A stretch of DNA of 64,000 nt from Candidatus Omnitrophota bacterium (GTDB lineage Bacteria > Omnitrophota > Gorgyraeia > Zapsychrales > JBAZNR01). The position numbers and the translations under genes were made by a program. The stretch's first letter is position 1; each line of letters opens with the position of its first letter. Shown here one piece after another: positions 2,625-39,708 of this stretch. Location: assembly GCA_041649175.1 (NCBI GenBank), contig JBAZNR010000002.1:114822-178821 (forward strand), written 5' to 3'. The notes under the pieces are model-generated. The model was not told the origin of the DNA, did not search any database, and was given only the letters and a program-made list of their open reading frames with translations.

Positions 2625-4127
2625 CTAAAGCGAGACGGTATCGTTCTGGGTGATGGCGTTGATAAGGCTTTTTTCAGGGGCGGCCTTTTTAACTTGGCCG
2701 GTGATTTTCTTAAAGAAATAATCAAGGAACGCTTTAAATCCGTGAAGTTTTCTAAGTAAATCTCCGACATTGCGGATGGAAATGAACATTTTCCACATTT
2801 GTTTTGGGCGAAGATAAAATTCCTTTAAGCCCGTATCGATCATCTCGTCGATCTCTTTATAGGATAATTGCGGATAATTAAGCAAAGTGCGTTGTTCATG
2901 TTGTGGGGTAAGCCACTCGCGCCAGTCTTTCGCAAGAAGATATCCTTTTTCTTTAGCCCATTTATAAAGGCTTGTTCCCGGGTAAGCCGCAACGCCGGTA
3001 ATTTGAATGGTGTCCATCGGAAGGGATTTGGCGAAGTCAATTGTTTTTCGGGCGCTGTCGCGTGTTTCTCCGGGAGCGCCGATCATAAAGCACCCGTGAA
3101 CGGTAAAGCCCAGTTCGCTGGCGCGATTGGCATAACGGCGGGCCATATCAGTGCTAACACCGCCTTTGTGGACAGCGCGCAGTGCTTCATTAGTGCCGAA
3201 TTCAAATCCGGTCATCAACATGCGGCATCCGGCCTTACGCATAAGGGGAAGCAGTTCTAAGTCGGTATTAACGCGCATATTACAAGACCAAGTGATTTTT
3301 TTATTGATGCCGCGCTTCATGATCTCTTCGCAGACTTCCGTGACGTGCTTTTTATCGGCGGCAAAGGTGTCGGTTTCGAACATGATCTCTCGGATCTGCG
3401 GATGAGTTTTTATGTCGTATTCCATCTCGTCCACAACGAGCTGGGCGTGGCGATTGCGCAGTCGATAACCATACATGAGTTGCGGATCGCGGCAAAAAGA
3501 ACAGGCATTATTGCAGCCTCGTCCGGTGATAAGAGTTAAAAACGGGAATTTTTTTCCGCCATCGGGATACCATTCCGGTTTAATGAGCTGCCAAGCCGGA
3601 AAGGGAAGTTCATTTACATCAATGGTGGGGCGTTCGGGATTATGAACAACGGCTGTTTTATCCCACCAGGACATCCCTAAAATAGATTTTGGATCCATTC
3701 TGTCGGCGAGTTCGCGTAAGGAATAGTCGTATTCGCGATGTAAAACATAATCTACGGTGCCGCGGCCGATCTCAAAGGTATTATCGGGCTCGGCGGTGAC
3801 ATGTTGTCCGACGAAAGCAACTTTGCAACCGGTTGCTTCTTTGATCGTTTTTGCTTGCTCAATGTCGGCATAAATAGACGGAGTTGTGGCATGAATGACT
3901 AAAAGTTCCGGATTGAATTCTTTGGCGCGGCGAAAGGATTCTTCGACGGAAAGGTTTTGAGCGGCTGCTTCTAAGAATTCAACTTTGTGCCCGCGGTCAA
4001 TAAGGATCTGGGCAGCGATGAGCAGAAACTCGGGGTGGCGCTGAACGCGTCCGCGCGACTTAGCGGCCCAGCGGGCAACGCGAACAAAATCTTCGCCGTA
4101 AGATGGATTTAAAAGGAGGACATTCAT
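2625..4127 (-). CDS. B12-binding-domain radical SAM protein (class B radical SAM)
   Basis: The 500-aa ORF has an N-terminal Rossmann-like B12-binding-type region and the radical SAM motif GRGCNNACSFCRD (CxxxCxxC) in mid-protein. The C-terminal half is typical for this family. Confidence 0.7.
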   Translation of the reverse strand: MNVLLLNPSYGEDFVRVARWAAKSRGRVQRHPEFLLIAAQILIDRGHKVEFLEAAAQNLSVEESFRRAKEFNPELLVIHATTPSIYADIEQAKTIKEATGCKVAFVGQHVTAEPDNTFEIGRGTVDYVLHREYDYSLRELADRMDPKSILGMSWWDKTAVVHNPERPTIDVNELPFPAWQLIKPEWYPDGGKKFPFLTLITGRGCNNACSFCRDPQLMYGYRLRNRHAQLVVDEMEYDIKTHPQIREIMFETDTFAADKKHVTEVCEEIMKRGINKKITWSCNMRVNTDLELLPLMRKAGCRMLMTGFEFGTNEALRAVHKGGVSTDMARRYANRASELGFTVHGCFMIGAPGETRDSARKTIDFAKSLPMDTIQITGVAAYPGTSLYKWAKEKGYLLAKDWREWLTPQHEQRTLLNYPQLSYKEIDEMIDTGLKEFYLRPKQMWKMFISIRNVGDLLRKLHGFKAFLDYFFKKITGQVKKAAPEKSLINAITQNDTVSL

Positions 4128-25427: not shown

Positions 25428-26141
25428 ATGGACAATCTCCCTTACTCTAAGTCAGAATCCTGGAAAATGTTCGATAAGATCTCCGGCCGATATGATCTGC
25501 TCAATCGGCTTTTATCATTTGGGCTGGATATCGGCTGGCGCAAGAAAATCGTCTCCTTTCTGCCCCCAAAAAACGATTTAACCATTCTTGATCTTGCCAC
25601 CGGAACCGGGGATGTTCTGCTTTATCTTTTTGAGCAGACAAAATCCATCAAAATAGCTTACGGCATTGATCTTTCGGAAAAAATGCTTCTGATTGGCCAA
25701 GAAAAGATAAAGACGCGCAAGTTAGAAGCACAGATCATCTTAAAAAACGGCGACATTAATCAAATCCCGTTTGAAGAAAATTATTTTGACGCGGCAACCA
25801 TTGCGTTCGGAATTCGTAACGTGGTCAATCCAAAACAGGTTTTAAGTGAAATGTTGCGTGTTTTAAAGCCGGGCGGACGGGCGATCATATTAGAATTTGC
25901 TATTCCCGAAAACGCTTTAGTGCGCCCCATTTTTACCTTTTATTTGAGAAAAATTTTGCCCGCCGTCGGCGCGCTTATTTCCGGAAATCTTAAAGCCTAT
26001 AAATATCTTAATCAAACGGTAGAAACGTTTATGTACGGCGAAGAATTTTGCCAAGCGATGGGTGCTTGCGGTTTTCTTAATGTCCGCGCTCACCCCCTGA
26101 CGTTTCAAACGGCGATGATCTATACAGGTGAAAAACCCTAA
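25428..26141 (+). CDS. menG: demethylmenaquinone methyltransferase / UbiE-family C-methyltransferase
   Basis: The 237-aa ORF has the UbiE/MenG N-terminus (MFDKISGRYDLLNRLLSFGLD), the SAM motif LDLATGTGD, and VLKPGGRAIILEF. A men gene cluster lies downstream. Confidence 0.8.
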   Translation: MDNLPYSKSESWKMFDKISGRYDLLNRLLSFGLDIGWRKKIVSFLPPKNDLTILDLATGTGDVLLYLFEQTKSIKIAYGIDLSEKMLLIGQEKIKTRKLEAQIILKNGDINQIPFEENYFDAATIAFGIRNVVNPKQVLSEMLRVLKPGGRAIILEFAIPENALVRPIFTFYLRKILPAVGALISGNLKAYKYLNQTVETFMYGEEFCQAMGACGFLNVRAHPLTFQTAMIYTGEKP

Positions 26142-26144
26142 GCG

Positions 26145-27557
26145 ATGAGTCAGGCGATCGAAGAAAAACAAATTTTAACCTTTAATGAAGCGAAAGAGTT
26201 TTGCGCCGGAGAAATACGACGCCTTGCCGAAGAGCTTCCTTTAGGCAAAAACCGCATCATTCGTTTTGAAGTTAAAATTAATTCTGCCGATCTACCGCAG
26301 TTTTTAGCGTCTAACGCGTCAAATTCCAAAATTTACTGGTCCAGCCGTGAATCGTATTTGCCCGACCGGCAGGGAAGTTTTGAAACCGCGGGCTTAGGAA
26401 TTTCTTACGCGCTTTCCGGAACCAGCATCATTGATTACGATGCCATCTTTCACGAATTGAACCGGTATCTGTCCGGCGATAACAAGAATGTTAAGTTTTT
26501 TGGCGGAATAGCGTTTAACCATACCTCAATCGATAAAAACTGGGAAGAATTTGGAAGTTATCGTTTTGTTTTGCCTCGTTTTGAAGTTCTTAAACGTAAT
26601 CAGCAAACATTTTTTGCCTGTAATGTTTTCGGAAATGTTTTTAGCGCCCGGGAAGCCGAAAGAATTCTTCAAGAATTAGAAAGCCTAAAATGCCCAAATG
26701 AAAAAACATCTTTGATGTTTCCGCGGCTTATTTCCCGTAGCGATGAACCAAAGAAATCCGAATGGATAAAAAAAGTTGATGCGCTCATCAAACGTCTTAA
26801 GAATAAAACTTTAGAAAAAACGGTCTTAGCGCGCCAATCGGTCTTTGAATTTGCCGAAAATCCCGATCCCTGGGCTATTCTTAGAGAACTTAAAAGTATT
26901 TCTCCCGATTGTTTTCATTTTTGTTTTTCACCTATTGATGCGGCCGCTTTTATCGGCGCTTCGCCCGAAAGGCTTTATAAGCGCGACGGAAAAACGGTTC
27001 GAACCGAGGCTATTGCCGGAACGCGTCCGCGCGGGCGATCATCGGAAAGTGATTCAAAATTAAAACAGGAACTTCTTAATTCACCCAAAGAACTTAAAGA
27101 ACATCAATTTGTGGCCGAAGCTATTGAAGATGCGCTAGAGCAGGTGTGCACGCGTTGGGATATGGAAACAAAATCCACTCTTTTGGCGCTTAAAAGCGGG
27201 CAACATCTTTTGACATCATTTAAAGGAAATCTTAAAAAAGATACCGATGATGCCGAAATTTTAAGTTTGCTGCATCCCACACCGGCGGTCGCGGGTTGTC
27301 CGACGGATAAAGCGCTTAAAGTTATCAAGCAATTTGAGCCGTTTAAGCGCGGTTGGTACGCGGCACCGGTCGGTTGGGTTGGTTTTGACAGTTGTGAATT
27401 TGCGGTCGGCATTCGTTCCGGGCTTATTTTAAATAATAAACTTTTCGTTTACGCCGGGGCAGGGATCGTGGAAGATTCAAATCCACAAGATGAGTGGGAT
27501 GAAGTAGAAACAAAGATAGGAAGTTTTATTAAGATATTCGAAAGCAGTAAACTCTAA
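26145..27557 (+). CDS. menF: isochorismate synthase
   Basis: The 470-aa chorismate-binding enzyme has a C-terminal region (SPERLYKRDGKTVRTEAIAGTRPRG ... PTPAVAG ... GWYAAPVGW) typical of MenF/EntC. Its stop overlaps the menD start by 1 nt. Confidence 0.8.
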   Translation: MSQAIEEKQILTFNEAKEFCAGEIRRLAEELPLGKNRIIRFEVKINSADLPQFLASNASNSKIYWSSRESYLPDRQGSFETAGLGISYALSGTSIIDYDAIFHELNRYLSGDNKNVKFFGGIAFNHTSIDKNWEEFGSYRFVLPRFEVLKRNQQTFFACNVFGNVFSAREAERILQELESLKCPNEKTSLMFPRLISRSDEPKKSEWIKKVDALIKRLKNKTLEKTVLARQSVFEFAENPDPWAILRELKSISPDCFHFCFSPIDAAAFIGASPERLYKRDGKTVRTEAIAGTRPRGRSSESDSKLKQELLNSPKELKEHQFVAEAIEDALEQVCTRWDMETKSTLLALKSGQHLLTSFKGNLKKDTDDAEILSLLHPTPAVAGCPTDKALKVIKQFEPFKRGWYAAPVGWVGFDSCEFAVGIRSGLILNNKLFVYAGAGIVEDSNPQDEWDEVETKIGSFIKIFESSKL

Positions 27558-29212
27558 TGACAAATTTAAATTCTATGTGGGCTGAGCTAATTATCGAAGA
27601 ACTCATTCGAAACGGTGTCGATTATTTCTGCATCGCTCCGGGTTCGCGTTCGGCGCCTTTGACCATTGCCGCCGCGCGCAACAAACGTGCTAAAACTTTT
27701 GTTCATTTTGACGAAAGAGGATTGGCGTTTCACGCTTTAGGCTATACAAGTGCGACGCGAAAACCTTGTGTTTTGATCTGTACATCAGGCACGGCTGTGG
27801 GCAATTTTTTTCCCGCGATCATTGAAGCCTCGAAGAAAAAATTGCCCCTGATCGTCCTTACCGCCGATCGTCCGCCGGAACTTCAAAAAACCGGCGCTAA
27901 TCAAACCATCGAACAAAATAATATTTTCGGAAAATACGCCAAATGGACTTTTGAATTTCCTTGTCCGACCCCGGAAATTAAGCCTGAATTTGTCTTGACC
28001 ACAATCGATCAGGCGGTTTTTCAAGCCAAATCCGGAATGAAAGGCGTTGTGCATTTGAATTGCATGTTTCGCGAACCTTTGACGCCGAAAAAGACAGAAA
28101 AGCGTATAGCGTATAGCGTTGAGCGTTTAGGGCCATACACGACATATGAGAAACTAGACGCTATCCGCTACACGCTAGACGCTAAAACGCTCGATGCAAT
28201 TAAATCGATTAAAAACGGTTTAATTGTCGTTGGCAAAATCCCCTTATCCGGTTCTCACGCGCAAGCTGTTTTACATTTAGCTGAAAAACTCCAATTTCCT
28301 ATTTTTCCCGATGTAACGTCCGGTTTGCGCTTAGGGATTGATCATCCCAATCTTATTCATTATTACGACCTTCTCTTGGCTGAAAATAAGCTTAAAAACT
28401 TCAAGCCCGATGGAATTATCCATTTAGGCGGACGGATCACTTCTTCTCGCTATTACGAATTCATCAAATCCTTAAGCCCTAAAACCCTTAAGTCCTATAT
28501 AACTGTTATAAGCCATCCCTTACGAAACGATCCCTTGCACATTGTTACGCATCGCATTCAATCTTGCGTAGGGCAGTTCTGCATGACAGTAAATGAAAAA
28601 ATCCCTTCGCGGCCCCAATCCGCTCAGCTTTTGTCACTTAAGAAGCTTTCAGAAAGCACCAACTCGAAACTGACAAAACTGGAAAACTCGAAAACTTTAA
28701 GCGAAGAAGCCGTTGCTCGTCTTATTTCTCGTCTTATTCTCAAAAATTCCGGCCTATTTTTATCCAGCAGCTTGCCCGTGCGCCACATGGACACTTACGC
28801 CGCTTACGACGGAAATCCGGTCATCGTCGGCTCTAATCGGGGAGCAAGTGGCATTGATGGTACGATTGCCAGCGCGATTGGATTTGCAAAAGGATTAAAT
28901 AACCCGACAACGCTTTTAATCGGCGACTTAGCATTTCTACATGATCTAAACTCTCTAGCAATGCTTAAAGATTTGAAAGTTCCGCTTACGATCGTCGTTC
29001 TTAATAATAACGGCGGGGGAATATTCCATAAACTTCCCGTATCGCAAGTCAAAGACGCGTTTATAAAATATTTTAAAACTCCGCATAACTTGAATTTTAA
29101 GCAAATAGGAAATGTTTTTAATTTAGAGAATTATGCGGTAAAATCGATGAAGGATTTTGCGCGAGCTTATAAAAACAAGGGAAAGAAAATAATAGTTTGC
29201 AATGGATGCTAA
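27557..29212 (+). CDS. menD: 2-succinyl-5-enolpyruvyl-6-hydroxy-3-cyclohexene-1-carboxylate synthase (TPP enzyme)
   Basis: The 551-aa ORF has the MenD-type N-terminus (WAELIIEELIRNGVDYFCIAPGSRSAPL) and the TPP-binding GDLAFLHDLNS...NNNGGGIF. The men operon context supports the call. Confidence 0.85.
   Translation: MTNLNSMWAELIIEELIRNGVDYFCIAPGSRSAPLTIAAARNKRAKTFVHFDERGLAFHALGYTSATRKPCVLICTSGTAVGNFFPAIIEASKKKLPLIVLTADRPPELQKTGANQTIEQNNIFGKYAKWTFEFPCPTPEIKPEFVLTTIDQAVFQAKSGMKGVVHLNCMFREPLTPKKTEKRIAYSVERLGPYTTYEKLDAIRYTLDAKTLDAIKSIKNGLIVVGKIPLSGSHAQAVLHLAEKLQFPIFPDVTSGLRLGIDHPNLIHYYDLLLAENKLKNFKPDGIIHLGGRITSSRYYEFIKSLSPKTLKSYITVISHPLRNDPLHIVTHRIQSCVGQFCMTVNEKIPSRPQSAQLLSLKKLSESTNSKLTKLENSKTLSEEAVARLISRLILKNSGLFLSSSLPVRHMDTYAAYDGNPVIVGSNRGASGIDGTIASAIGFAKGLNNPTTLLIGDLAFLHDLNSLAMLKDLKVPLTIVVLNNNGGGIFHKLPVSQVKDAFIKYFKTPHNLNFKQIGNVFNLENYAVKSMKDFARAYKNKGKKIIVCNGC
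28101..28193. repeat. in-frame cluster of short direct and inverted TAGCGT/ACGCT-type repeats inside menD
   Basis: AGCGTATAGCGTATAGCGTTGAGCGTTTAG ... CTAGACGCTATCCGCTACACGCTAGACGCTAAAACGCTC. The two halves are approximately reverse-complementary and built from (T/C)AGCGT units. The segment encodes RIAYSVERLGPYTTYEKLDAIRYTLDAKTLDAI. Confidence 0.4.
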
Positions 29213-29489
29213 ACCAATACGCTATTCAATTCTTGAAATCGTTGCTATCTTTGCCGCAGGAATTCTGCTTTGCGTTGCAATTCCTAAAGGCTTCTTGAAT
29301 GATAAGCCGTTTCTTCTGTGGGCTTCGCTAACGTTATCGCTGTATCTTCTATTAAAAATCCTCCACCGAAAAAATAAAAACATTTTAAAAATGCAACCGG
29401 GATTTAAAATTGTTGCAAATATATTATTGATTGTATGGGCGCTATGCGGAGCGATGTTCTTTTTTCTCACAGTATTTTGTAATTTTTAA
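29202..29489 (+). CDS. hypothetical small membrane protein
   Basis: The 95-aa ORF has 2-3 TM helices and is AT-rich. It overlaps the menD 3' end by 11 nt. I recognise no motifs. Confidence 0.3.
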   Translation: MDAKPIRYSILEIVAIFAAGILLCVAIPKGFLNDKPFLLWASLTLSLYLLLKILHRKNKNILKMQPGFKIVANILLIVWALCGAMFFFLTVFCNF

Positions 29490-29545
29490 AACAAACAGCG
29501 ACTGGCACGTTTTTAGAAGATCAAAAAAAGGAATTATTGTTATCA

Positions 29546-30187
29546 ATGGATAAGAACAACCCAACAACGAAAAAGCGGGATTTTGATAAAGAAGCGGCCA
29601 CCTGGGACACCGCGCAAAAGATCACTTTAGCCAAAAATATCGCCGGGGCTATTTTAAGCCAAGTCAAATTGACAAAAGAAATGGATGTTATGGATTTTGG
29701 CTGCGGCACCGGGCTTTTGGCTTTCCATATTCAGCCCCTGGTCCGCTCGGTCGTCGGTGTCGACAGCTCAAAGGGAATGTTGGATGCTTTTAATACCAAG
29801 ATCCGCCAGAAGGATATCAAAAACGCCAAAACTTCTTTTGTGGATTTAAGCGCGGGAGATGTTTTAAACGGACGCTATCAGGCTATTATTAGCGGTATGA
29901 CGCTTCATCATATTGAAGATGTTCCGGCGCTTTTGAAACGTTTCTTTGAAATTTTAACCAAAGGCGGACAACTCGCGCTGGTAGACTTAGATGAAGAGGG
30001 CGGCCTTTTTCATGAAAACAAAGACGGCGTTTTTCACAACGGGTTTAACCGGGAAAAATTGAAAGGCTTGTTAACGGATGCGGGCTTTGCCGATATCCGC
30101 GACACAACGGCCGCCCAAATGACCAAGTCCGCCGCTAACGGCGCGCTTAGAACATTTTCGATTTTTTTAATAACGGGGAGAAAATGA
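29546..30187 (+). CDS. class I SAM-dependent methyltransferase
   Basis: It has the Rossmann SAM motif MDFGCGTGL and the downstream acidic/hydrophobic pattern (LVDLDEEGG). The start is taken at MDKNNPTT. Confidence 0.7.
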   Translation: MDKNNPTTKKRDFDKEAATWDTAQKITLAKNIAGAILSQVKLTKEMDVMDFGCGTGLLAFHIQPLVRSVVGVDSSKGMLDAFNTKIRQKDIKNAKTSFVDLSAGDVLNGRYQAIISGMTLHHIEDVPALLKRFFEILTKGGQLALVDLDEEGGLFHENKDGVFHNGFNREKLKGLLTDAGFADIRDTTAAQMTKSAANGALRTFSIFLITGRK

Positions 30188-30247
30188 AGGTGAGTGGCGC
30201 GTATTTAAAAAGGTACGTGTCCCGGGAAATTTGTAAAGGAGATATAA

Positions 30248-31102
30248 ATGGCGCCCAAAAGAAAAGAAATTACTAATCCAATTCCACAGCCTCCTTCAGT
30301 AAACCCCGAAAAAGGAATTGAATTGATAAAAAAGCAAATAGATCGCGGCAAGGATTTGCTTGCTAAAAGACCACTAAGAAAAGATGACTATCTTTCATGG
30401 GAAAATATTACACAGGCATGTCTCGAGAAATCGTTTGGTTTAAATTCACCAAATGTAAATAAGGTATTAGATATTGGCAAATACGGTGCTTTTCCTATGG
30501 GGGCAAGCGAAGATTATTGGGAAAATAGTAGGTCTGAGGATCTTTCGTCGCAAATCTCAATGTTAATAAGTCAAATTGAATTGCTTGAAATGGAGATATC
30601 GCTTTCTTCGGATACTAAGAGTGGACCAGTCATTCCTAGTCATTTGCCAGCAATTTCACGGAAAATATTCCTTGTCCATGGACATGATGATGGTATCAAA
30701 GAAGCGACAGCAAGATTTTTAGAGAAGTTGGGTTTAGCGCCAATAATCTTGCATGAGAAGCCAAATCAAGGAAGAACAATCATCGAGAAAATTTCTGATT
30801 ATTCCGATGTAGGCTTTGCAGTTGTGCTGTTAACAGGCGATGATGTTGGCAGAATAAATGATGCAAAATGTGAGAACCTTCTTCCGCGTGCTCGCCAAAA
30901 TGTAGTCCTTGAACTCGGGTATTTTTTAGGAAGAATTGGTCGGCAACGAGTATGTGCTCTCTATCAAAAAGGAGTTGAAATTCCATCAGATTATTCCGGC
31001 GTTCTGTTTATTCCTTTAGATGAGAGTGGTGCCTGGCGTGTGCAGTTGGCTAAGGAAATCAAAGCAACAGGTATTGACTTAGACATGAACAGCGCCATTT
31101 GA
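30248..31102 (+). CDS. two-domain protein: N-terminal domain of unknown family + C-terminal TIR-like nucleotide-binding domain (COG4271/PF10137 type)
   Basis: Residues ~138-275 carry three motif blocks: KIFLVHGHDDGIKEATARFLEKLGLAPIILHE, SDVGFAVVLLTGDDVG, and RQNVVLELGYFLGRIGRQRVCALY. These match the blocks I recall for the 'predicted nucleotide-binding protein containing TIR-like domain' family (FDFAIFVFSPDD / RDNVIFELGLFIGRLG). The N-terminal ~135 aa is helical or coiled-coil (ISMLISQIELLEMEIS), has no TM segment and belongs to no family I recognise. The gene is AT-rich relative to its flanks. Confidence 0.6.
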   Translation: MAPKRKEITNPIPQPPSVNPEKGIELIKKQIDRGKDLLAKRPLRKDDYLSWENITQACLEKSFGLNSPNVNKVLDIGKYGAFPMGASEDYWENSRSEDLSSQISMLISQIELLEMEISLSSDTKSGPVIPSHLPAISRKIFLVHGHDDGIKEATARFLEKLGLAPIILHEKPNQGRTIIEKISDYSDVGFAVVLLTGDDVGRINDAKCENLLPRARQNVVLELGYFLGRIGRQRVCALYQKGVEIPSDYSGVLFIPLDESGAWRVQLAKEIKATGIDLDMNSAI

Positions 31103-31171
31103 AATACTTGCAGAAAACAACTGACGCTATTTTTAAATTTAATTGAATTAAAAAATTTCGATGGAGAAGAA

Positions 31172-32785
31172 ATGAAAAAAATAACTGAATTAAAATTAGG
31201 GTTTAGCGATGCGGAAAATTACAAACGCAAGGAAAATAAAGAGTTGTTTAATGCTATTTTTGTGAAAAATGTTTTTCTCGAGCAGCTAATGAGCCCTAGT
31301 TCATTTTTCTTGATTGGTGAAAAAGGTACGGGAAAAACCGCATATGCCGTCTACTTATCTAATAGTGTTTATCAAGGGAACAAGTCAGAGTTAAAATATA
31401 TCAGAGAAACTGATTATCAAAAATTTGTCAACCTAAAACAAAAGCACCACCTTTTGCTATCGGATTATGAAAGCATATGGAAAGTTATTATCTTGTTACT
31501 ACTAGCAAAGAGTATTAATGTCGAAGAATTAGAAGGCAACCCTTTTAGTAAGAACAAGAAATTTAAGATTATATTAGAAGCAATTGATGAATATTATAAT
31601 CACGCATTCTCACCAGAGATATTAGCAGCTTTGAATTTGATTGAAAATTCAAAGATAGCGGCAGAACTGGTGTCAAAGCATTTAAAGGCAGGAGGCGAGC
31701 AGACTGCCCAAACTTCATTTCAAGAATCACGTTTTCAAGTGAACTTACTTTACTTGCAGCGTGAATTCGAAAGAGCCCTTAGCGACATAAAAACAAAAAC
31801 ACATCATATACTCTTCATCGATGGAATAGATATAAGGCCTGGATCAATTCCTTACGATGAATATCTGGAATGCATCAAGGGCTTAGGCAATGCTATTTGG
31901 AACCTGAACAATGATTTTTTTTCTCAATTAAAATACTCCAATGGTAGGTTTCGTGCAGTATTATTAATACGGCCAGACATATTTAATTCGATCGGTTTGC
32001 AAAATTCTACGAACAAGATATTAGATAATTCAGTTTTTCTTGATTGGAAAACCACATACCCAGATTACCGCCATTCACAAATCTTCGGACTTATTGATAG
32101 ATTATTAAATGCTCAGCAAGGGAAAAAGTTCGAACATGGAGAGGCTTGGGATTTTTATTTCCCTTGGAAATCGCCTACCACAAGTCCAAGCAGAGGTCAT
32201 GACCCATCGTTTTACAAATTACTACGTCTCTCTTATTCAAGACCGCGAGACTTAGTTACAATATTGAAAATTCTTCAACAGGTTGCAATTGAAGATAAAA
32301 CCCAAGAAAATACGTTTTTCTCACTAGAGAACTTTGACAGTGACAAATTTCAAAATCGATATTCTGAATATCTTATGGGAGGAATAAAAGATCAGCTATC
32401 GTTTTACTATACAGACAAAGATTACGAATTCTTTTTAAAATTCTTTAATCATTTTGAAGGTAAAGGTAGATTTGATTACAATGAATATCTATCGGCTTAC
32501 AAGAAATTTACTGAGGACATATTAAATTACCATACAGGAATTCCAGAATTTGTTGATAATCCGGATAAATTCTTACAATTTTTGTATGACACCAATATTC
32601 TTTGCTACATTGAGAATTCAAGATCAAGCAACCCATCTTTTAGCTGGTGCTATCGAGACAGAAGCCCGGCCAATATATCTCCAAAGGTAAAGAGTAACGT
32701 AAGATATGAAATACATTATGGCCTGCTGAAGTCTCTTAATTTAGGATTTGGAAGCAAAAAAAGAAAGAAATATGAAAAAGGGTGA
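31172..32785 (+). CDS. P-loop NTPase of unassigned family (Walker A GEKGTGKT, Walker B ILFIDGID, downstream SRPRD motif)
   Basis: The 537-aa ORF has Walker A at residues 49-56 (nt 31316..31339) and Walker B hhhhDGxD at residues 213-220 (nt ~31808..31831). The two are separated by about 155 aa, indicating an inserted helical region. LLIRPDIF (263-270) is a possible sensor strand, and LSYSRPRDLV (353-362) is a possible Arg sensor. The C-terminal ~170 aa is unassigned. The gene is very AT-rich and sits 70 nt downstream of the TIR-like gene on the same strand. Confidence 0.65.
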   Translation: MKKITELKLGFSDAENYKRKENKELFNAIFVKNVFLEQLMSPSSFFLIGEKGTGKTAYAVYLSNSVYQGNKSELKYIRETDYQKFVNLKQKHHLLLSDYESIWKVIILLLLAKSINVEELEGNPFSKNKKFKIILEAIDEYYNHAFSPEILAALNLIENSKIAAELVSKHLKAGGEQTAQTSFQESRFQVNLLYLQREFERALSDIKTKTHHILFIDGIDIRPGSIPYDEYLECIKGLGNAIWNLNNDFFSQLKYSNGRFRAVLLIRPDIFNSIGLQNSTNKILDNSVFLDWKTTYPDYRHSQIFGLIDRLLNAQQGKKFEHGEAWDFYFPWKSPTTSPSRGHDPSFYKLLRLSYSRPRDLVTILKILQQVAIEDKTQENTFFSLENFDSDKFQNRYSEYLMGGIKDQLSFYYTDKDYEFFLKFFNHFEGKGRFDYNEYLSAYKKFTEDILNYHTGIPEFVDNPDKFLQFLYDTNILCYIENSRSSNPSFSWCYRDRSPANISPKVKSNVRYEIHYGLLKSLNLGFGSKKRKKYEKG

Positions 32786-32859
32786 AAAGGGGGACAGCGC
32801 CCGTTAATTTAATAAATAAAATTCTCGCAAATCGTTATTGACGGAACGGACATAGTTAA

Positions 32860-33465
32860 ATGCAAATATTTCTAAAATCAAAAATTATTTTTATTGCGGC
32901 CTTTTCTCTGGCTTTTTACGGCTGTGTCGGAATCGGAGCACCTATATTAGACCCTTGGACAAATTCTCAAAATGTTGATGGGTTGCTTGCACATAACCGG
33001 CCGCTTCCTGCTGAACTTCTTATTGAAGCTACGATGGAGAATTGCAAAAGGAAAAATGATGAGCTCGGTCTGGCTCTCGCCTATAAAATGTTTGCAAATT
33101 TTTTGGAATCATCAACTGTAAAAAATTGGGAATACCATTATCGAAGAGACGGATTTATAATCGATAAAACAGTGACTTTCGATAACCGCCTGGATAAAGC
33201 CCGCGAATACTGGTATAAATCGTTGCATCTTTATCAAAAAAATAATGCGCATGCCGAAGAGTCCAATATATATGTCAATATTGCCACCTCCGACTTTTTT
33301 ATTAAGAATGATCCTCAAACTGCCTGTCAAAATCTCGACTTAAGCCTTGAGGCTCATGTAAAATTTAGGAAAGATCATCCTGACAAGCCCATTATAATGG
33401 ACAAGAGATTTAAAGATTTTCCTGATTACATCAAAGCCGCAAAAGAACAATTTGAGTGCAAATAA
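32860..33465 (+). CDS. hypothetical secreted protein / possible lipoprotein
   Basis: The 201-aa ORF has an N-terminal signal peptide with a Cys at the end of the h-region (AFSLAFYGCVG, a non-canonical lipobox). It is AT-rich. I recognise no motifs. Confidence 0.4.
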   Translation: MQIFLKSKIIFIAAFSLAFYGCVGIGAPILDPWTNSQNVDGLLAHNRPLPAELLIEATMENCKRKNDELGLALAYKMFANFLESSTVKNWEYHYRRDGFIIDKTVTFDNRLDKAREYWYKSLHLYQKNNAHAEESNIYVNIATSDFFIKNDPQTACQNLDLSLEAHVKFRKDHPDKPIIMDKRFKDFPDYIKAAKEQFECK

Positions 33466-33542
33466 AACAAAACGGGCACAGCCCGTCTCGTCCGCTAAAT
33501 TGCGAAAGGGTCAGTCCTCGATAAGAAAATGAGGCGAATAAA

Positions 33543-33878
33543 ATGAAAAAATTTTTTCTTATATTCGGCTGGTTTGAGATCATCCTTGGCGGTTGTTTAG
33601 GCGTGTTTGCGTTATCCATCAGCCTCTTTGATCTTTTCACGATGCGCGCTGAAGGAGTTTACATCCTTGTTGGAATCTTGTTTTTATTACCGCTTTCTTT
33701 ATTGCTTTTGGTTTCCGGTTTTATGCTCAAAAAGGGAAGCATTATCGGAAAAGCGCTGTCGATCGCGTCGGTTTTGATCATTCTTTTTCTTGTTTTAAGC
33801 TATTCTGCTTTTCTGCAGGATAGGAAAGATCATAGGGAAAAAATAAACACGCGTATTGAAGAGCAGAAGAATAAATAA
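33543..33878 (+). CDS. hypothetical small membrane protein
   Basis: The 111-aa ORF has 3 TM helices and a charged C-terminal tail (DRKDHREKINTRIEEQKNK). Confidence 0.4.
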   Translation: MKKFFLIFGWFEIILGGCLGVFALSISLFDLFTMRAEGVYILVGILFLLPLSLLLLVSGFMLKKGSIIGKALSIASVLIILFLVLSYSAFLQDRKDHREKINTRIEEQKNK

Positions 33879-33882
33879 CCAA

Positions 33883-34022
33883 GATGCAATAACCTATGAG
33901 TAATAATTAGGGAACTACGGTTGATAGGATGAGTTGTGCGTTGTGAGTCGAGTTGTGAGTTTTGGGCGTGGGTAAACCCAAAAACACACAACACAAAACC
34001 TGACACAAAACTCATAACGCAT
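33883..34022. repeat. ~140-bp imperfect palindrome with strand-skewed GT-rich / CA-rich halves
   Basis: The left half is GATGCAATAACCTATGAGT...GAGTTGTGCGTTGTGAGTCGAGTTGTGAGTTTTGGGCGTGGGT. The right half is ACCCAAAAACACACAACACAAAACCTGACACAAAACTCATAACGCATC. They are approximately reverse-complementary, with a 7-bp core stem TTTTGGG/CCCAAAA around the loop CGTGGGTAAA. Confidence 0.45.
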
Positions 34023-34041
34023 CCCAATAACCAATAAAAAT

Positions 34042-35007
34042 ATGTTAAAAACTACCATCGATTATCTTTTTTATAGTGTTTTAAAGCTGCCGCTCGACTC
34101 ACCCTCGGTTGAAATGGCGAACTTTTTTATCTACGATTCCATCAAGATCCTTTTGCTTTTATTTTCCATGATCTGGGTGATCGGGATCTTGCGCACCTTT
34201 GTTTCGCAAGAGAAGATCAAAGGCTGGCTGGGCCGCAGTAAAGGCGTGGGGAATTTATTCGCCTCAATTTTTGGCGCTATTACACCGTTTTGTTCGTGCT
34301 CGTCCATTCCGCTTTTTATCAGCTTTTTGAAAGCCGGTGTTCCTTTGGGCGTGACATTTTCCTTTTTGATCACCTCACCTCTGGTCAATGAATATCTGGT
34401 CGTTTTGATGATCGGGTTTTTCGGTTGGAAAATAGCCATGCTTTACGCGTTTTTCGGGATTTTTATCGGCGTTATGGCGGGAATGGTTTTAGGAATGATG
34501 AAACTAGAAAAAAATCTGGCGGCCGATATTTTTAACGCGCAGTACGCCGAAACGCCCGCAGCAGTTGCGACATACAAAAACTTCAAAGCGCGAGTTTTGT
34601 TTGGTTCAGGCGAGGCTGTCACGATCGTGAAACAACTTTGGGGCTGGGTTTTAGTGGGTGTCGCCATGGGCGCGTGGATCCACAATTACATTCCGCAAGA
34701 AATGGTCAATACCGTGGTGAGCAAAGCCGGGATCTTAGGCGTTCCGGCGGCGGTTGCTTTAGGCGTTCCGATGTACGGCGGCTGCGCGGCCATTGTTCCG
34801 GTGGCGGTTGTTTTATTCCAAAAGGGTTTTCCGTTAGGGACGGCGCTTTCCTTTATGATGGCGGTTTCCGCCCTTAGTTTGCCGGAAGCCATTATGCTTC
34901 GCCGGGTGATGAATTTGCGATTAGTAATCATCTTTTTTGCCGTGACAACCTTAGGTATTATCATTACGGGATATTTGTTCAACTTTTTGCAGGGGATCAT
35001 TGTTTAA
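34042..35007 (+). CDS. DUF318/ArsP-family predicted permease
   Basis: The 321-aa polytopic ORF has the family-typical [10 protein letters not shown] motif, with a second half repeating the topology. The true start may be the internal Met (~34114). Confidence 0.6.
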
Positions 35008-35842
35008 CAAATTAAAGAAAGAGCAAAATATGAATTGGAAGCCATCAGGAAAATTTACAGATATTAAATACGTTAAATCCGAGGGAATAGCGAAAATCAC
35101 TATCAATCGCCCGCAAGTGCGAAATGCGTTTCGGCCCTTAACGGTTCAGGAAATTTCTCAAGCCTTAAATGACGCGCGCGATGATGAAAGAATCGGCGTT
35201 ATCATTTTAGCGGGTGAAGGAAAGCTGGCGTTTTGTTCGGGCGGCGATCAAAGCGTGCGAGGAAATGCCGGATATAAAGATTCTAAAGGCGTTCATCGGC
35301 TTAATGTTTTAGACCTTCAGCGTCAGATCCGCAGCTGTCCAAAACCGGTGATCGCGATGGTGGCAGGATACGCTGTTGGCGGCGGGCAAATACTACAAAT
35401 GCTCTGCGACTTGACCATTGCGGCCGACAATGCGATCTTTGGCCAAACCGGCCCTAAAGTGGGCTCATTTGACGGTGGTTATGGCGCCAGCTACATGGCG
35501 CGCATCGTCGGGCAAAAGAAAGCGCGCGAGATATGGTTTTTGTGCCGACAATATAACGCGAAACAAGCTTTGGAGATGGGTCTGGTGAATACAGTTGTTC
35601 CTTTAAAGAATTTGGAAACGGAAACAGTGAAATGGTGCAAAGAGATTTTAGCCAATTCACCGATGGCCATTCGCTGTTTAAAAGCCGCGCTTAACGCAGA
35701 TTGCGATGGACAAGCGGGCTTGCAAGAACTTGCCGGAAACGCCACGATGTTATTTTATATGAGCGAAGAAGGGCAAGAAGGCAGAAACGCGTTTTTAGAA
35801 AAGAGAAAGCCGAATTTTAGTAAGTTTCCGAAAAGACCATAG
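35000..35842 (+). CDS. menB: 1,4-dihydroxy-2-naphthoyl-CoA synthase (crotonase fold)
   Basis: It has the MenB signatures FCSGGDQ, the GYAVGGG oxyanion-hole region, and the C-terminal [17 protein letters not shown]. The start is probably the internal Met at 35030. Confidence 0.9.
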
Positions 35843-35983
35843 CTTAAAATTCCAATAACCAAGCAACAATAACCAAATAATGTTCAAACCTCAATTTACA
35901 AATTCCAATATGTTTGGTGATTGGATTTTGATTATTGGAATTTATTTGTACCTTGTATCTTGGGATTTGGTTATTAAATTAAC

Positions 35984-36868
35984 ATGAATCTTTCTGAATT
36001 AAAAAATTGGCTTTTAGCGATTCGCCCCAAAACTCTTCCGGCGGCGATAGCGCCGGTTATTATCGGTACGGCGATGGCGGCTTCCGACCATCGTTTTCAT
36101 TTCTTTTCTGCCTTGGCCGCTCTTTTGGGTGCGCTTCTTATTCAAATTTTAGCCAATCTTACAAACGATTATTTTGATTTTAAAAAAGGCGCGGATACCA
36201 ACGAACGCATTGGCCCAACGCGGGTGATGCAGGCGGGATTGATCAACTCTAAACAGATGAAGATCGCCATTGCCATTGTTGTTGGATTGATCGGTCTTGT
36301 GACGGCATTTTTATTCTTTCGCGGCGGAATTCCCATCGCGATCATTGGAGTTCTCTCTATCATTTGCGCGTTTCTTTATACCGCCGGGCCTTTTTCTTTA
36401 GGATATTTAGGTTTAGGAGAAGTTTTTGTTTTTATTTTCTTTGGGCTGGTCGCGGTTACCGGAACATATTTTGTTCAAGCACTCACTATAAAACCTATTG
36501 TTTTGATCGCGGGAATTGCGCCGGGGCTTTTATCCGTCGCTATCTTGACAGTTAATAATTTGCGCGATCTTGACCAAGACCGAAAAGCAGGTAAAAAGAC
36601 TTTAGCTGTTCGTTTTGGGCGTGCCTTTGCCATTATGGAATACTTTTATTCAATTGTGATCGCCGCGTTCGTTCCGCTCATTTTATTTTTTATCACTGTT
36701 AGCCATTCGTACGCGTTGACCTCAATGATCATCTTACTTTTAGCCGCTCCGGCCATGCGAACCGTTTTTACCAAAACCGACGGGCCTGTGCTTAATGAAA
36801 CCTTGGCTTACACAGGGCAACTTCTTTTTATCTACAGCCTGCTTTTTTCTTTAGGATGGATCTTGTGA
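35984..36868 (+). CDS. menA: 1,4-dihydroxy-2-naphthoate polyprenyltransferase (UbiA family)
   Basis: The 294-aa UbiA-fold membrane protein has NDYFDFKKGAD (the first Asp-rich motif) and a second motif NNLRDLDQDRKAGKKTL. Confidence 0.85.
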   Translation: MNLSELKNWLLAIRPKTLPAAIAPVIIGTAMAASDHRFHFFSALAALLGALLIQILANLTNDYFDFKKGADTNERIGPTRVMQAGLINSKQMKIAIAIVVGLIGLVTAFLFFRGGIPIAIIGVLSIICAFLYTAGPFSLGYLGLGEVFVFIFFGLVAVTGTYFVQALTIKPIVLIAGIAPGLLSVAILTVNNLRDLDQDRKAGKKTLAVRFGRAFAIMEYFYSIVIAAFVPLILFFITVSHSYALTSMIILLLAAPAMRTVFTKTDGPVLNETLAYTGQLLFIYSLLFSLGWIL

Positions 36869-37830
36869 ACATAAAACAGATCGAAATCCTCAAATACAAA
36901 CTTCCGCTTAAAATTCCGCTTATTTTCAAGAAGCATAGACTACGATTTCGTGAAGGATTTGTGATTGAAATTGCCGACTTAGAAGGGAATTTTGGGTTGG
37001 GAGAAATTTCTCCTTTGCCGGGATTTAGCCGGGAAAGTTTATCGATGGTTAAAAGGGAATTGTTTTTACTTAAAAAGCGGCTCCTGGGCGAAGAGCTTTC
37101 AAAAGATTTCTTGAAACTTGAAGGACGTTTTTTTAAATGGCTTGATCGCTACAAGCTTTCCGCTTCCGTGCGCTGCGGTGTGGAAATGGCCGTTTTAGAC
37201 CTTTTGGAAAATAAAAAGAAGAACGCGGTTTCGGCGACAGTTCCGGTTGCCGGGCTTTTAACGGGAACAAAAGAGGAAGTTTGCCGCCACACAAAAGAAT
37301 TGTTGGCGCACAAGTTCAAGGTTTTTAAACTGAAAATTGGACGCGGAACGCTCAAAGAAGAGATCTTAAAAACGAAAACAGTTTTGTGGCTCTTGGCGGG
37401 CAGGGCGAGCTTGCGCCTTGATTGCAATCGTCAATTCAGTTTTAAAGAAGCGGTCGAATTCGCTTCGCATTTTAAAGCCAAGGATCTTGAATATATCGAA
37501 GAGCCATTTGCGGATTTTAAACACATTCCCGAATTCTTTAAGAAAACCGGGATCGGAGTTGCTCTAGATGAAACGCTTCTTGAGATCGATCCGGCTGATC
37601 TAAAAAAGTTTTCCGGTGTTAAAGCACTGGTTTTAAAACCGACCATTCTCGGCGGATTTGAGCGCTGTATGCAATTCATTCGCGTGGCGAAAAAGCTAGG
37701 AATTGAATCTGTTATTAGCTCAAGCTTTGAAACAACGATAGGCTTAATGGCTTTGGCGCGTTTTGCCGCGAAAATTGACAAAAAAATCGCCCATGGCCTT
37801 GATACAGAAAAATGGTTCAAAGAACAATGA
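36856..37830 (+). CDS. menC: o-succinylbenzoate synthase (enolase superfamily)
   Basis: The 324-aa ORF has the MenC-like N-terminal capping region (FREGFVIEIADLEGNFGLGEISPLPGF) and a KxK region (FKLKIGRG). It overlaps the menA end and the menE start. Confidence 0.75.
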   Translation: MDLVNIKQIEILKYKLPLKIPLIFKKHRLRFREGFVIEIADLEGNFGLGEISPLPGFSRESLSMVKRELFLLKKRLLGEELSKDFLKLEGRFFKWLDRYKLSASVRCGVEMAVLDLLENKKKNAVSATVPVAGLLTGTKEEVCRHTKELLAHKFKVFKLKIGRGTLKEEILKTKTVLWLLAGRASLRLDCNRQFSFKEAVEFASHFKAKDLEYIEEPFADFKHIPEFFKKTGIGVALDETLLEIDPADLKKFSGVKALVLKPTILGGFERCMQFIRVAKKLGIESVISSSFETTIGLMALARFAAKIDKKIAHGLDTEKWFKEQ

Positions 37831-39323
37831 AAACGATTCCGTGCCCCTGGAGTGCTGCCGCAAAGAAATTTCCTCATCAGCCGGCGTTTATTCTTAAAAG
37901 CCGGCATGTTTCTTATCAGCAATTCGATCAGATCTGCGCGAAAACATTATTGACGCTGAAGGAATCCGGAATAAAGCCAAATGAACACATTGCCATTGTT
38001 TCACCCAATTCTTTTGAATATGTTGTTTTATTAGTAGCGCTCTGGCGGTTAAAAGCGGTCGCGGTTCCCATAAACACGCGTTTACCGGAAAAGGGAATTG
38101 CGGCGGCGCTTAAAAAGATAAGTGGAAGAAAGATTTTTCTCGCGCAAAAGGCAAATTTGCCTTTTGCGCAGCAGTTCCTGATCAGAGATTTTATTTATCC
38201 GCCGTGTTGTTGTGAATGCGAAGCAAAAGCGCAAAAGATTTCTTACGATCAAGACGCGACCATTGTTTTTACGTCAGGAAGCTCCGGTGAACCGAAAGCT
38301 GTTTTACATTCATTCGCAAATCATTTTTATAATGCTCTAGGGTCCAATAAAAACATTTCTCTTAAAATCGGCGACAGCTGGCTTTTATCCTTACCGCTTT
38401 ATCACGTCGGCGGCTTAGGAATTTTATTTCGCGCAGCTCTTAGCGGCGCGGCTGTCATTGTTCCCGAAGAAAATGAAACCCTGGAAAGATCGATCAAGCA
38501 TTATAAACCAACCCATCTTTCCTTGGTGGCGACACAACTTTATCGTCTTTTGCTCCGACGTCCCGATAAAAATGTTGGGAGTCGGAGTTCCGACCTTCTT
38601 GATAATGCTTCGCAAAGCGTCGGAAAAAATATCATCAGGGATCTTCAAAGGATGAAAGCTGTTTTAATTGGCGGAAGCGCGATCCCTGAAAACCTTATCA
38701 AAGGATCTTTCCGTCAAAAAATTCCCATTTATTTAACCTATGGATTGACTGAAATGGCGTCGCAAGTCGCGACAACAAAAAAGGGCTCAATAGATTCAGC
38801 AAAACCGCTTCAATTTCGAAAACTTAAAATCGCGAAAGACGGCGAGATATTAGTCAAAGGCGAGACATTGTTCAGGGGATATGTTTCCGGAGCTAAGGTC
38901 GCCCGCGCATTGACGCGAGACGGATGGTTTCCAACCGGCGATCTGGGACGATTTGACAGATCCGGCGCTTTGCATATTTTGGGACGCAAAGATAATATGT
39001 TCATTTCCGGCGGGGAAAATATTCAGCCTGAAGAGATCGAAAGGTCACTCTTGAAGCTTCCCGGAATTTCGCAAACCGTAGTCGTTCCGGTAAAAAATAA
39101 TGAGTTTGGGTTTCGCCCGGTTGCCTTTATCAAAACAACGCATCAAGCAAAGATCAATTCTGAAAGAATAAAAACAGTTTTGCGAAAAACCCTTCCGGGA
39201 TTTAAGATCCCCGACGCCTTTTATCCCTGGCCCAAAGATCTAAAAGAAAATTTAAAAATGAAACGGCTAAGTTTCCTGCAGATGGTGGGAAGCTGTAAAG
39301 TTACTTTAAAGAAAACTTTTTAA
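37812..39323 (+). CDS. menE: o-succinylbenzoate--CoA ligase (adenylate-forming enzyme)
   Basis: It has the AMP-binding motifs TSGSSGEPKAV and YGLTE, and C-terminal GWFPTGDLG...GRKDNMFISGGENI. Confidence 0.75.
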   Translation: MVQRTMKTIPCPWSAAAKKFPHQPAFILKSRHVSYQQFDQICAKTLLTLKESGIKPNEHIAIVSPNSFEYVVLLVALWRLKAVAVPINTRLPEKGIAAALKKISGRKIFLAQKANLPFAQQFLIRDFIYPPCCCECEAKAQKISYDQDATIVFTSGSSGEPKAVLHSFANHFYNALGSNKNISLKIGDSWLLSLPLYHVGGLGILFRAALSGAAVIVPEENETLERSIKHYKPTHLSLVATQLYRLLLRRPDKNVGSRSSDLLDNASQSVGKNIIRDLQRMKAVLIGGSAIPENLIKGSFRQKIPIYLTYGLTEMASQVATTKKGSIDSAKPLQFRKLKIAKDGEILVKGETLFRGYVSGAKVARALTRDGWFPTGDLGRFDRSGALHILGRKDNMFISGGENIQPEEIERSLLKLPGISQTVVVPVKNNEFGFRPVAFIKTTHQAKINSERIKTVLRKTLPGFKIPDAFYPWPKDLKENLKMKRLSFLQMVGSCKVTLKKTF

Positions 39324-39708
39324 GCGTTGTTTTGAGTTTTTCGGGTAAGGGGATCTTCTTGCGTTTTTTTCCATCCAAAGAAACATGGACCGTTTTCGCT
39401 GTTCCGGCTAGCTTTTTATTTTTTGTGAAGATCTGATAGTCTAATGTAAAGGATGATTGGCCGATGTTTTTAACAGCAACGTAAACGTCAAGTGTTTCGC
39501 CCACTATAAGAGGGGCGTGATAATCGGCCTCGGCATGAACGATGACCAGAAGGACTTTATTGGCGCGGATCATCGAGGCTATTTCAAAGCCGATGGAATC
39601 AAAGAACATTTCAAAAGCGTCATGAACGATCTTGAATTGATTAGCAAAGAAAAGAATTCCGGCGGCATCTGTATCGTGAAGCTTTACGGTCGCGCGATAG
39701 GTAAACAT
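39301..39708 (-). CDS. hotdog-fold acyl-CoA thioesterase (4HBT family; candidate DHNA-CoA thioesterase)
   Basis: The 135-aa ORF has the 4HBT pattern (HDTDAAGILFFANQFKIVHDAFEMF). It is convergent with, and overlaps, the menE 3' end. Confidence 0.65.
   Translation of the reverse strand: MFTYRATVKLHDTDAAGILFFANQFKIVHDAFEMFFDSIGFEIASMIRANKVLLVIVHAEADYHAPLIVGETLDVYVAVKNIGQSSFTLDYQIFTKNKKLAGTAKTVHVSLDGKKRKKIPLPEKLKTTLKKFSLK

Follow-up and report, generated by a model that had tools for sequence, protein, structure and literature searches.

The window, by which we mean the whole stretch of 64,000 nucleotides of Candidatus Omnitrophota DNA that was analysed, raises the question of what a P-loop NTPase does between two genes of menaquinone biosynthesis and next to the gene for a TIR-like protein. 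The open reading frame in question runs from position 31172 to 32785 of the forward strand, on which all features described below are located, starts with ATG and encodes 537 amino acids. A Shine-Dalgarno-like GGAG, read from the sequence, was located at positions 31163 to 31166, 5 nt 5' of the start codon. Promoter-like and terminator-like sites around the gene were no more frequent than in shuffled sequence. A preliminary description of this DNA regarded the product as a P-loop NTPase of unassigned family and novel architecture that is partnered with the TIR-like protein.

The protein was found to belong to a family that already has a name. It matched the NCBIfam profile NF047389, "P-loop ATPase, Sll1717 family", with 221.9 bits (cutoff 75), and the match was full length, with residues 9 to 522 aligned to profile positions 1 to 454 of 454. 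In a BLASTP comparison with Fun(Z) of phage P2 (gene Z/fun; NP_046777.1), 279 of 530 aligned positions were identical (53%, 2 gaps), and a tblastn search with the window protein reached P2 fun(Z) with 99% coverage and an E value of 5e-179. The two proteins also share their profile matches, since both fall into phrog_13260 (E value of 1.8e-123 for the window protein) and P2 Fun(Z) matched NF047389 with 209 bits. Consistent with these matches, the RefSeq label for the P2 gene in E. coli prophages is "P-loop ATPase, Sll1717 family", and a protein identical to that of the window is already deposited in GenBank/NCBI as "funZ protein", with an Omnitrophota MAG as its source. The window protein, hereafter FunZ, is thus a known, named member of the Fun(Z) family and does not represent a novel family. 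The preliminary description would have been refuted by a confident match to a housekeeping ATPase; the confident match that we obtained was to a known defence gene. PADLOC-DB v2 held no model matching FunZ, a search by sequence against solved structures (PDB) returned no meaningful match, and literature searches on "Sll1717" and "PDC-S35" (the latter being the class of the TIR-like neighbour, see below) found nothing.

In phage P2, fun(Z) is a classical gene of phage exclusion and lysogenic conversion (PMC8594841; P2 record). It is nonessential and lies between tail genes (P2 record), in a second P2 defence hotspot (PMC9519451). The cloned gene by itself blocks T5 and renders cells sensitive to FUdR (P2 record), and T-even, Vequintavirinae, Markadamsvirinae and Felix-O1-like phages are also inhibited by Fun(Z) (PMC8594841). 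The literature searches found no report of the mechanism of Fun/Z.

The P2 and window proteins have in common the motifs GEKGTGKT, ILFIDGIDIRP and LLIRPDIF, the RPRD core and the C-terminal motifs, and both genes are AT-rich, single and without a partner. They differ in that the RPRD core is preceded by tyrosine in P2 (YRPRD) and by serine in the window (SRPRD). The P2 gene belongs to a coliphage and is found in the tail-gene region of a prophage, whereas the window gene comes from a Candidatus Omnitrophota MAG and lies on the chromosome between men genes. The phenotypes belong to the P2 prototype, while FunZ of the window is known from its sequence. At this level of identity (53%), the two proteins probably share their biochemical activity, but the target phages of the window protein need not be those of P2 Fun(Z).

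All motifs of the family were present in FunZ, at exactly the positions given in the preliminary description where that description had named them. Walker A (GEKGTGKT, residues 49–56; 31316 to 31339) and Walker B (ILFIDGID, residues 213–220; 31808 to 31831) were placed by alignment and by an AlphaFold2 model; in Walker B, a glycine takes the place of the usual glutamate after the first aspartate (D-G-x-D). An R-P-D motif (R267-P268-D269; 31970 to 31978) follows strand 4, and SRPRD (residues 356–360; 32237 to 32251) is part of LSYSRPRDLV, residues 353–362.

Across 37 homologues with 55–100% identity, the invariant residues were G49, K51-T56, D217, G218, D220, R222, P223, R267-D269, Y355, R357, P358, R359 and D360. 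Among 59 diverse sequences with 24–53% identity, invariance was retained by K51, G52, G54, K55, D217, D220, N246, R267, N278 and R359, and P358, D360 and D269 were conserved in at least 90%. The invariance of R357 was limited to close relatives, unlike that of R359. Judged from these alignments, the motifs are conserved far more than expected by chance, and K55, D217, D220, N246, R267, N278 and R359 form a shortlist for mutagenesis.

In the AlphaFold2 model of FunZ (pLDDT 76, pTM 0.77), an AAA+ alpha/beta core contains both Walker motifs and leads into a helical lid. Walker A comes after strand 46–48 and opens helix 55–63, and Walker B is placed on strand 211–217. The wide spacing between these motifs, which had been taken as a sign of a large helical insertion, is filled in the model by helices 79–92, 96–114, 124–145, 148–157, 161–173 and 183–204. 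They make up a family-specific insert of ~125 residues (residues ~79–205; 31406 to 31786) that comes after strand 2 and before the strand of Walker B, and in which residues 146–185 were modelled with low confidence (pLDDT <50). The R-P-D motif stands at the end of strand 260–266, and from this position in the model we infer a role as the sensor-1/arginine site. Helix 358–374 comes after the alpha/beta core and has R359 at its N-terminus, the place of sensor 2 in AAA+ proteins. The arginine of SRPRD was suspected earlier to be an arginine sensor or finger; its conservation is borne out by the alignments, and the model suggests that R359 is likely the sensor-2 arginine in the lid.

The last ~160 residues, which include an F/Y/N-rich stretch at the C-terminus, form a separate domain in the model, as the preliminary description had proposed. 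This part of the protein (residues ~380–525; 32309 to 32746) consists of a helical linker and a winged-helix-like domain with a long wing, and it matched winged-helix domains in the structure comparison. Two representatives of the family carry a C-terminal cold-shock-like domain, with scores of 25.5 and 23.2, just under the Pfam cutoff of 27; these domains are a hint of a link to nucleic acids.

Foldseek matches of the model included Orc4, Orc5, archaeal ORC2 and TnsC with E values of about 5e-4. Both ORC/Cdc6 and HslU were among the matches, and we take the position of the FunZ insert in the fold to be that of the initiator-specific insert of ORC/Cdc6 and of the I-domain of HslU. FunZ is accordingly predicted from the model to be an AAA+ protein of the ORC/Cdc6, archaeal-ATPase or STAND-NOD type, with an insert of ~125 residues, a lid and a C-terminal winged helix. 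The resemblance to the ORC/Cdc6-like class is one of fold and not of membership by sequence, as Pfam PF24389 (ORC-CDC6-like) reached 20.7 bits (threshold 27) over residues 26–82 only. Identity to ORC/Cdc6 and Arch_ATPase proteins (SSO1545, 2fna; PAB2304, 2qen; Aeropyrum ORC2, 1w5t) was 8–15%. Compared to these proteins, FunZ has a much larger insert and a D-G-x-D Walker B in place of D-E or D-D, and it has no link to replication origins. TnsC (Tn7/CAST) and MuB lack the long insert, whereas FunZ combines it with a winged-helix C-terminus, has no transposase partner and belongs to a family whose role is defence, not transposition.

FunZ contains no recognisable effector domain, be it a nuclease, TIR, SIR2, protease or membrane domain, and Pfam, NCBIfam and PADLOC profile searches returned no repeat or effector domain. 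This build of the family, an ORC/Cdc6-like AAA+ ATPase with a winged helix and without an effector domain, is one of three additions made here, next to the shortlist of invariant residues and the spread of the gene described below. Identities as a KAP, ABC/OLD, canonical STAND or housekeeping ATPase were unsupported by profile and fold searches, in agreement with the preliminary description for the first three of these; in particular, FunZ did not show the KAP combination of a matching P-loop profile with a transmembrane insert in the NTPase domain. DS-41 ("AAA2", WP_033812887.1), from the DefensePredictor study (PMC13092281), is also a single-gene P-loop anti-phage protein, and its profile NF053860 matched residues 24–167 of FunZ with an E value of 2.9e-6. 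That match covered the N-terminal third only and reached 26.5 bits where 370 are required, so DS-41 was set aside as a different family.

The family, with ~1,800 or more homologues, extends across many phyla of bacteria and into at least one archaeon, uniformly as an AT-rich single gene. The GC content of funZ was 0.346 compared to 0.508 in the flanks and was lower than that of the flanks in 68 of 68 loci; the values were 0.328 and 0.538 for P2 fun(Z), and 0.34 and 0.442 for the window gene. Because the gene was AT-rich relative to its surroundings in every one of these loci, its composition fits horizontal transfer. Homologues were present on plasmids of Lactococcus, Ralstonia, Bacillus and Vibrio, and the closest relative (86% identity) was surrounded by AbiEii, PIN, integrase, TrwC and TraG genes. 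Neighbours in other genomes included integrases, type I R-M, Dpd, ZorD and PD-T4-6. Phages and bacteria exchange fun, and inverted repeats are reported to flank the gene both in P2 and in bacteria (PMC8987985). In P2, we found one weak flanking inverted pair (18 nt, 78% complementarity), and around the window gene only short, imperfect, AT-rich pairs at chance level. Taken with its family membership, FunZ is very probably a stand-alone, horizontally mobile, single-gene anti-phage protein of the abortive-infection or exclusion kind.

The immediate surroundings of funZ suggest other roles, which its homologues allow us to weigh. The gene lies between menD (27557–29212) and menB (35000–35842) on the same strand, a position that would suit an ATPase with a housekeeping or regulatory part in menaquinone biosynthesis. 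However, none of the 80 homologous loci, which are species-level genome loci, had a men context, the GC content of funZ (0.34) is below the 0.43–0.46 of menD and menB, and both phage P2 and plasmids carry homologues. Such a role is effectively refuted because the men context is not conserved, and we consider its probability negligible.

The second neighbour is the TIR-like gene (30248–31102), which adjoins funZ in the low-GC stretch between menD and menB. It is on the same strand, 69 bp upstream, with no terminator-like site found in the gap, and its product has a CAP12/Pycsar-type TIR domain (PF10137, E value of 3e-36). The two genes could work as a pair, with the ATPase detecting infection and switching on a TIR-like NADase effector, or the reverse, and because FunZ itself carries no effector domain, an effector in trans is attractive in principle. 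The shared strand says little, since all genes between 23.4 and 39.3 kb of the window are co-directional. A phmmer search of all ORFs of at least 50 aa detected the TIR-like neighbour at none of the 80 FunZ loci, and it was likewise missing from four of the closest relatives (86%, 76%, 67% and 64% identity). PF10137 was absent from the recurrent families in a Pfam scan of 141 genes flanking funZ, and no FunZ was found beside homologues of the TIR-like protein (58–70% identity) at any of three loci. Moreover, the cloned P2 gene works alone, and PADLOC classifies the TIR-like protein as the single-gene defence candidate PDC-S35. A conserved two-gene system, and with it the partnership claimed earlier, is largely refuted and in our view highly improbable; the TIR-like gene is a separate single-gene defence candidate with no conserved link to funZ. 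Secondary coupling of FunZ to this PDC-S35 protein in the Omnitrophota locus would be a less likely addition to the speculative proposal made at the end of this text.

Two further explanations concern the ATPase itself. The gene may work for its own mobile element in the manner of TnsC, MuB and IstB-type AAA+ proteins, for example by helping to select targets, to partition the element or to control its replication, with phage exclusion as a side effect. No transposase, integrase or other partner was conserved beside funZ; when genes up to three positions away on either side were clustered by all-against-all BLAST, no family appeared in more than 4 of the 80 loci. In addition, the P2 gene is nonessential and situated between tail genes, and many funZ loci had no mobile-element gene in the immediate flanks, which makes a service role very unlikely. 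Alternatively, FunZ could be a STAND/NLR-like sensor whose insert or winged helix detects one particular phage protein. It would then oligomerise and kill without engaging DNA, either by recruiting or activating a host factor or by using up ATP. STAND/NLR defence ATPases (Avs, CED-4/Apaf-1 and plant NLRs) and RADAR RdrA are set apart from FunZ by their repeat sensors or fused effectors, as FunZ has no TPR, WD40 or LRR repeats and no effector domain. In structure it was matched best by ORC/Cdc6, the archaeal ATPases and TnsC, not by STAND proteins, and nSTAND3 scored 15.2 bits, under the threshold of 27.2. The FUdR sensitivity of uninfected lysogens is hard to square with recognition of a phage protein, and a target range of four unrelated phage groups points to a general cue more than to a single protein. 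We regard this sensor as rather unlikely.

As a tentative mechanism, Fun(Z) may instead be an ATP-driven switch that oligomerises on a phage-induced cue and engages nucleic acid. The cue would probably be replication stress, DNA breakdown or a disturbance of the nucleotide pool, any of which would explain the FUdR sensitivity. The winged helix and the helical insert would probably make the contact with nucleic acid, as in Cdc6/ORC, TnsC and MuB, and once bound, the protein would stop the infected cell from replicating DNA or expressing genes. A more specific proposal, which we put forward as speculative, is that the Fun(Z) family comprises effector-less immune proteins of the ORC/Cdc6 type (AAA+ plus winged helix). 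Stress on replication, the breakdown of DNA or a collapse of the nucleotide pool would trigger them to assemble, dependent on ATP, on DNA or on intermediates of its replication, and the infection would thereby be aborted. The fold, the list of invariant residues and the spread as an AT-rich single gene provide usable starting points for work on the mechanism. If true, the proposal of effector-less immune proteins would account for the breadth of the family's action on large virulent phages as well as for the sensitivity to FUdR that was first seen decades ago.

The funZ ORF (31172–32785, + strand) starts with ATG, has GGAG 5 nt 5′ of the start codon, and encodes a protein of 537 aa. FunZ matched the NCBIfam model NF047389 ("P-loop ATPase, Sll1717 family") over its full length with 221.9 bits against a cutoff of 75, and an identical protein from a Candidatus Omnitrophota MAG had been deposited in GenBank as "funZ protein". 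This name is explained by similarity to fun(Z) of bacteriophage P2, which was seen in a tblastn search of phage genomes (52.6% identity over 99% of the FunZ length). BLASTP comparison with P2 Fun(Z) gave 279/530 identities and 2 gaps. P2 Fun(Z) also matched NF047389 (209 bits), and both proteins matched phrog_13260. In E. coli prophages, the RefSeq name of the P2 gene, which is carried by 13 of 5,426 complete genomes, is likewise Sll1717-family. Judged by sequence on every computable criterion, FunZ is a member of the Fun(Z)/Sll1717 family, and family membership together with a defence role is highly probable. The preliminary description had taken the protein to be novel and without an assigned family, which was incorrect given the full-length family match, the P2 homology, and the existing deposit. 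FunZ had seemed unassigned because Pfam gave only sub-threshold matches (ORC-CDC6-like, 20.7 bits, cutoff 27; nSTAND3, 15.2 bits, cutoff 27.2) and PADLOC-DB v2 contained no matching profile. An ORC/Cdc6-type family was ruled out by sequence because the Pfam threshold was not reached, and the likeness is one of fold only. Family tests for KAP and DS-41 also failed. FunZ residues 24–167 were weakly but significantly similar (E 2.9e-6) to the NCBIfam model for DS-41 ('AAA2'), which the DefensePredictor study validated as a single-gene AAA protein acting against phages. This N-terminal similarity may reflect a broader superfamily of AAA defence proteins that lack effectors.

The motifs and domains previously read from the sequence were confirmed. 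Walker A (GEKGTGKT, residues 49–56), Walker B (ILFIDGID, 213–220), and LSYSRPRDLV (353–362) lie at the residues first proposed, are conserved in homologue alignments, and all recur in P2 Fun(Z), which has YRPRD in place of SRPRD; the C-terminal part is rich in F/Y/N. FunZ has more than 1,800 database homologues, almost all of ~530 aa. The Walker A, Walker B, and SRPRD motifs were all invariant in 37 homologues (55–100% identity). Among 59 diverse representatives of the family (24–53% identity), ten invariant columns were left: K51, G52, G54, and K55 in Walker A, D217 and D220 in the Walker B region, and N246, R267, N278, and R359. Across the same representatives, P358, D360, D269, and N286 were at least 90% conserved. 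The invariance of R359 among diverse members indicated that the second arginine of SRPRD marks the family.

An AlphaFold2 model of FunZ built from the 37-sequence alignment was usable (pLDDT 76.2, pTM 0.77). In the model, a strand (46–48) leads through the P-loop into a helix (55–63), followed by a strand (70–76), a helix block (79–204, with low confidence at residues 146–185), the Walker B strand (211–217) and a helix (228–252), a strand (260–266) ending in the invariant R267 with P and D269, and helices plus one short strand reaching residue ~290. The model is completed by a helical lid, with R359 at the N-terminus of helix 358–374, and by a C-terminal domain. This order of secondary-structure elements is that of the AAA+ fold, so FunZ comprises an AAA+ core, into which a ~125-residue family-specific helical segment is inserted, together with a lid and a winged helix. 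The Walker B motif is D-G-x-D instead of D-E, and this sequence suggests that hydrolysis is slow or regulated. No nuclease, TIR, SIR2, protease, kinase, or membrane domain was present in FunZ. Rare fusions occur in the family, with an N-terminal Ser/Thr kinase in P0216 (Pfam E 3e-35), a C-terminal cold-shock-like OB domain in P0123 and P0124 (E ~1e-5, just below the Pfam cutoff), and an unassigned 166-aa N-terminal extension in P0237.

Directly upstream, the TIR-like gene (30248–31102, + strand) encodes 284 aa with an uncharacterised N-terminal region of ~130 residues and a C-terminal CAP12/Pycsar-type TIR domain (PF10137, E 3e-36). The protein matched the PADLOC single-gene defence candidate PDC-S35 (E 1.8e-77), for which a literature search by name returned nothing, as well as phrog_16442, and its family is very large (>7,500 matches). 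To compare neighbourhoods, we used 80 FunZ loci, each from another species; many bacterial phyla and one Methanosarcina were represented. With the TIR-like protein as query, phmmer gave no match among all ORFs (≥50 aa) of these loci, no family occurred in more than 4 of the 80 loci when the genes up to three positions from funZ on either side were clustered, and PF10137 was not among the recurrent Pfam families of 141 genes flanking funZ. The TIR neighbour was also missing from four close FunZ relatives (86%, 76%, 67%, and 64% identity), and none of three TIR homologues (58–70% identity) had FunZ beside it. One of the TIR-like homologues (P0275) has a protein kinase gene directly downstream, which may be a coincidence. 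The shared strand of the two genes carries little information because all window genes between 23.4 and 39.3 kb are on the + strand. Promoter-like and terminator-like sites occurred at no higher rate than in shuffled sequence. Since the adjacency did not recur in relatives and cloned P2 fun(Z) acts alone according to the P2 reference record, we rejected a conserved two-gene TIR and NTPase system, and with it the earlier reading of FunZ as TIR-partnered. There is a small chance that the two genes cooperate locally in this lineage.

funZ lies between menD (27557–29212) and menB (35000–35842), within a menaquinone array (25428–39708) in which NCBIfam identified UbiE/MenG, isochorismate synthase, MenD, MenB, MenA, MenC, and MenE; a thioesterase also belongs to the array. 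Seven ORFs occupy the ~5.8 kb that interrupt the array between menD and menB, and NCBIfam matched none of them to an enzyme of the menaquinone pathway. They are two small membrane ORFs, a methyltransferase, the TIR-like gene, funZ, an ORF resembling a lipoprotein, and a SaoE-like permease. Low GC (0.34–0.40 vs 0.44) was seen in several of these, including the two ORFs 3′ of funZ on the + strand. The first (32860–33465, 201 aa) has a lipoprotein-type signal (…AFYGC…) and a weak TPR match, and the second (33543–33878, 111 aa) resembles a multi-pass membrane protein. No family assignment was found for either ORF, and neither recurred beside FunZ elsewhere.

The GC content of funZ was 0.34, compared to 0.442 for the window. 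In all 68 loci whose flanks were long enough for comparison, funZ was more AT-rich than its flanks (mean GC 0.346 vs 0.508), with a difference above 0.05 in 65 of them, and its GC was nearly constant whatever the GC of the host. P2 fun(Z) had a GC of 0.328 against 0.538 in its flanks. The lysogenic-conversion genes of P2 have been reported to be unusually AT-rich, and the low GC of funZ agrees with this and extends the pattern across phyla. Plasmid-borne homologues were found in Lactococcus, Ralstonia, Bacillus, and Vibrio, and the neighbours of funZ in other genomes, listed by occurrence, included integrases, type I restriction-modification, Dpd, ZorD, PD-T4-6, and a HaeIII endonuclease. The AT-richness, plasmid homologues, and flanking genes are consistent with a horizontally mobile single-gene defence determinant. 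Around the gene for the closest relative (P0002, 86% identity), we found an ICE-like element with AbiEii, an HTH antitoxin-like gene, a DUF4062/HATPase_c_4 protein, PIN, a tyrosine integrase, T5orf172, a TrwC relaxase, a TraG coupling protein, and Fic; toxin-antitoxin and Abi cargo is densely clustered there. P2 fun(Z) is bracketed by a weak 18-nt inverted pair (78% complementary; 3812–3829 and 5905–5922 of the P2 locus), which may be the flanking inverted repeats of fun cassettes reported in the literature; no counterpart was found around the window funZ.

In the BASEL study (PMC8594841), Fun/Z is counted among the three abortive-infection systems that P2 carries and is said to abolish T5 infection "via an unknown mechanism"; it inhibited every tested Tevenvirinae, Vequintavirinae, and Markadamsvirinae phage plus one Felixounavirus. 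It has been listed as "phage exclusion" (PMC3091744), and fun occupies a second defence hotspot of P2-like phages (PMC9519451) and is a superinfection-exclusion gene swapped between phages and bacteria (PMC8987985). In Neisseria, a variable island can carry funZ in place of a WYL-domain protein or a helicase. Our literature search found no paper giving the Fun/Z mechanism.

The best-supported working model, still a tentative one drawn from the predicted structure and the known phenotypes, is that FunZ acts as an ATP-controlled switch. A phage-induced cue would trigger oligomerisation, the winged helix and insert would engage nucleic acid, and the bound protein would stop replication or expression in infected cells. 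Cdc6/ORC, TnsC, and MuB, the closest relatives of FunZ in structure, are likewise nucleic-acid-engaging oligomers. The NBD-HD-WHD layout of FunZ is common to ORC/Cdc6, archaeal ATPases, and the STAND NOD module. Alternatively, FunZ might behave like a STAND protein that directly recognises a phage protein and relies on a host-derived effector. We consider this somewhat less likely than the switch model. FunZ failed the family test for STAND membership. Three points speak for a general cue, which could be replication stress, breakdown of DNA, or a disturbed nucleotide pool: the targets include unrelated large virulent phages, a cold-shock-like domain is fused to some family members, and uninfected P2 lysogens show raised sensitivity to FUdR (P2 reference record). 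For the switch model, such a cue would be the signal for oligomerisation. FUdR poisons thymidylate synthase, leading to thymine starvation and DNA damage.

With the exact protein deposited as funZ and the family and prototype phenotype on record, the finding itself is already known, and the FunZ case is an ordinary one for the window. As side value, the fold assignment, the set of invariant positions, and the uniform AT-richness across phyla bear on Fun(Z) as a classic defence gene.
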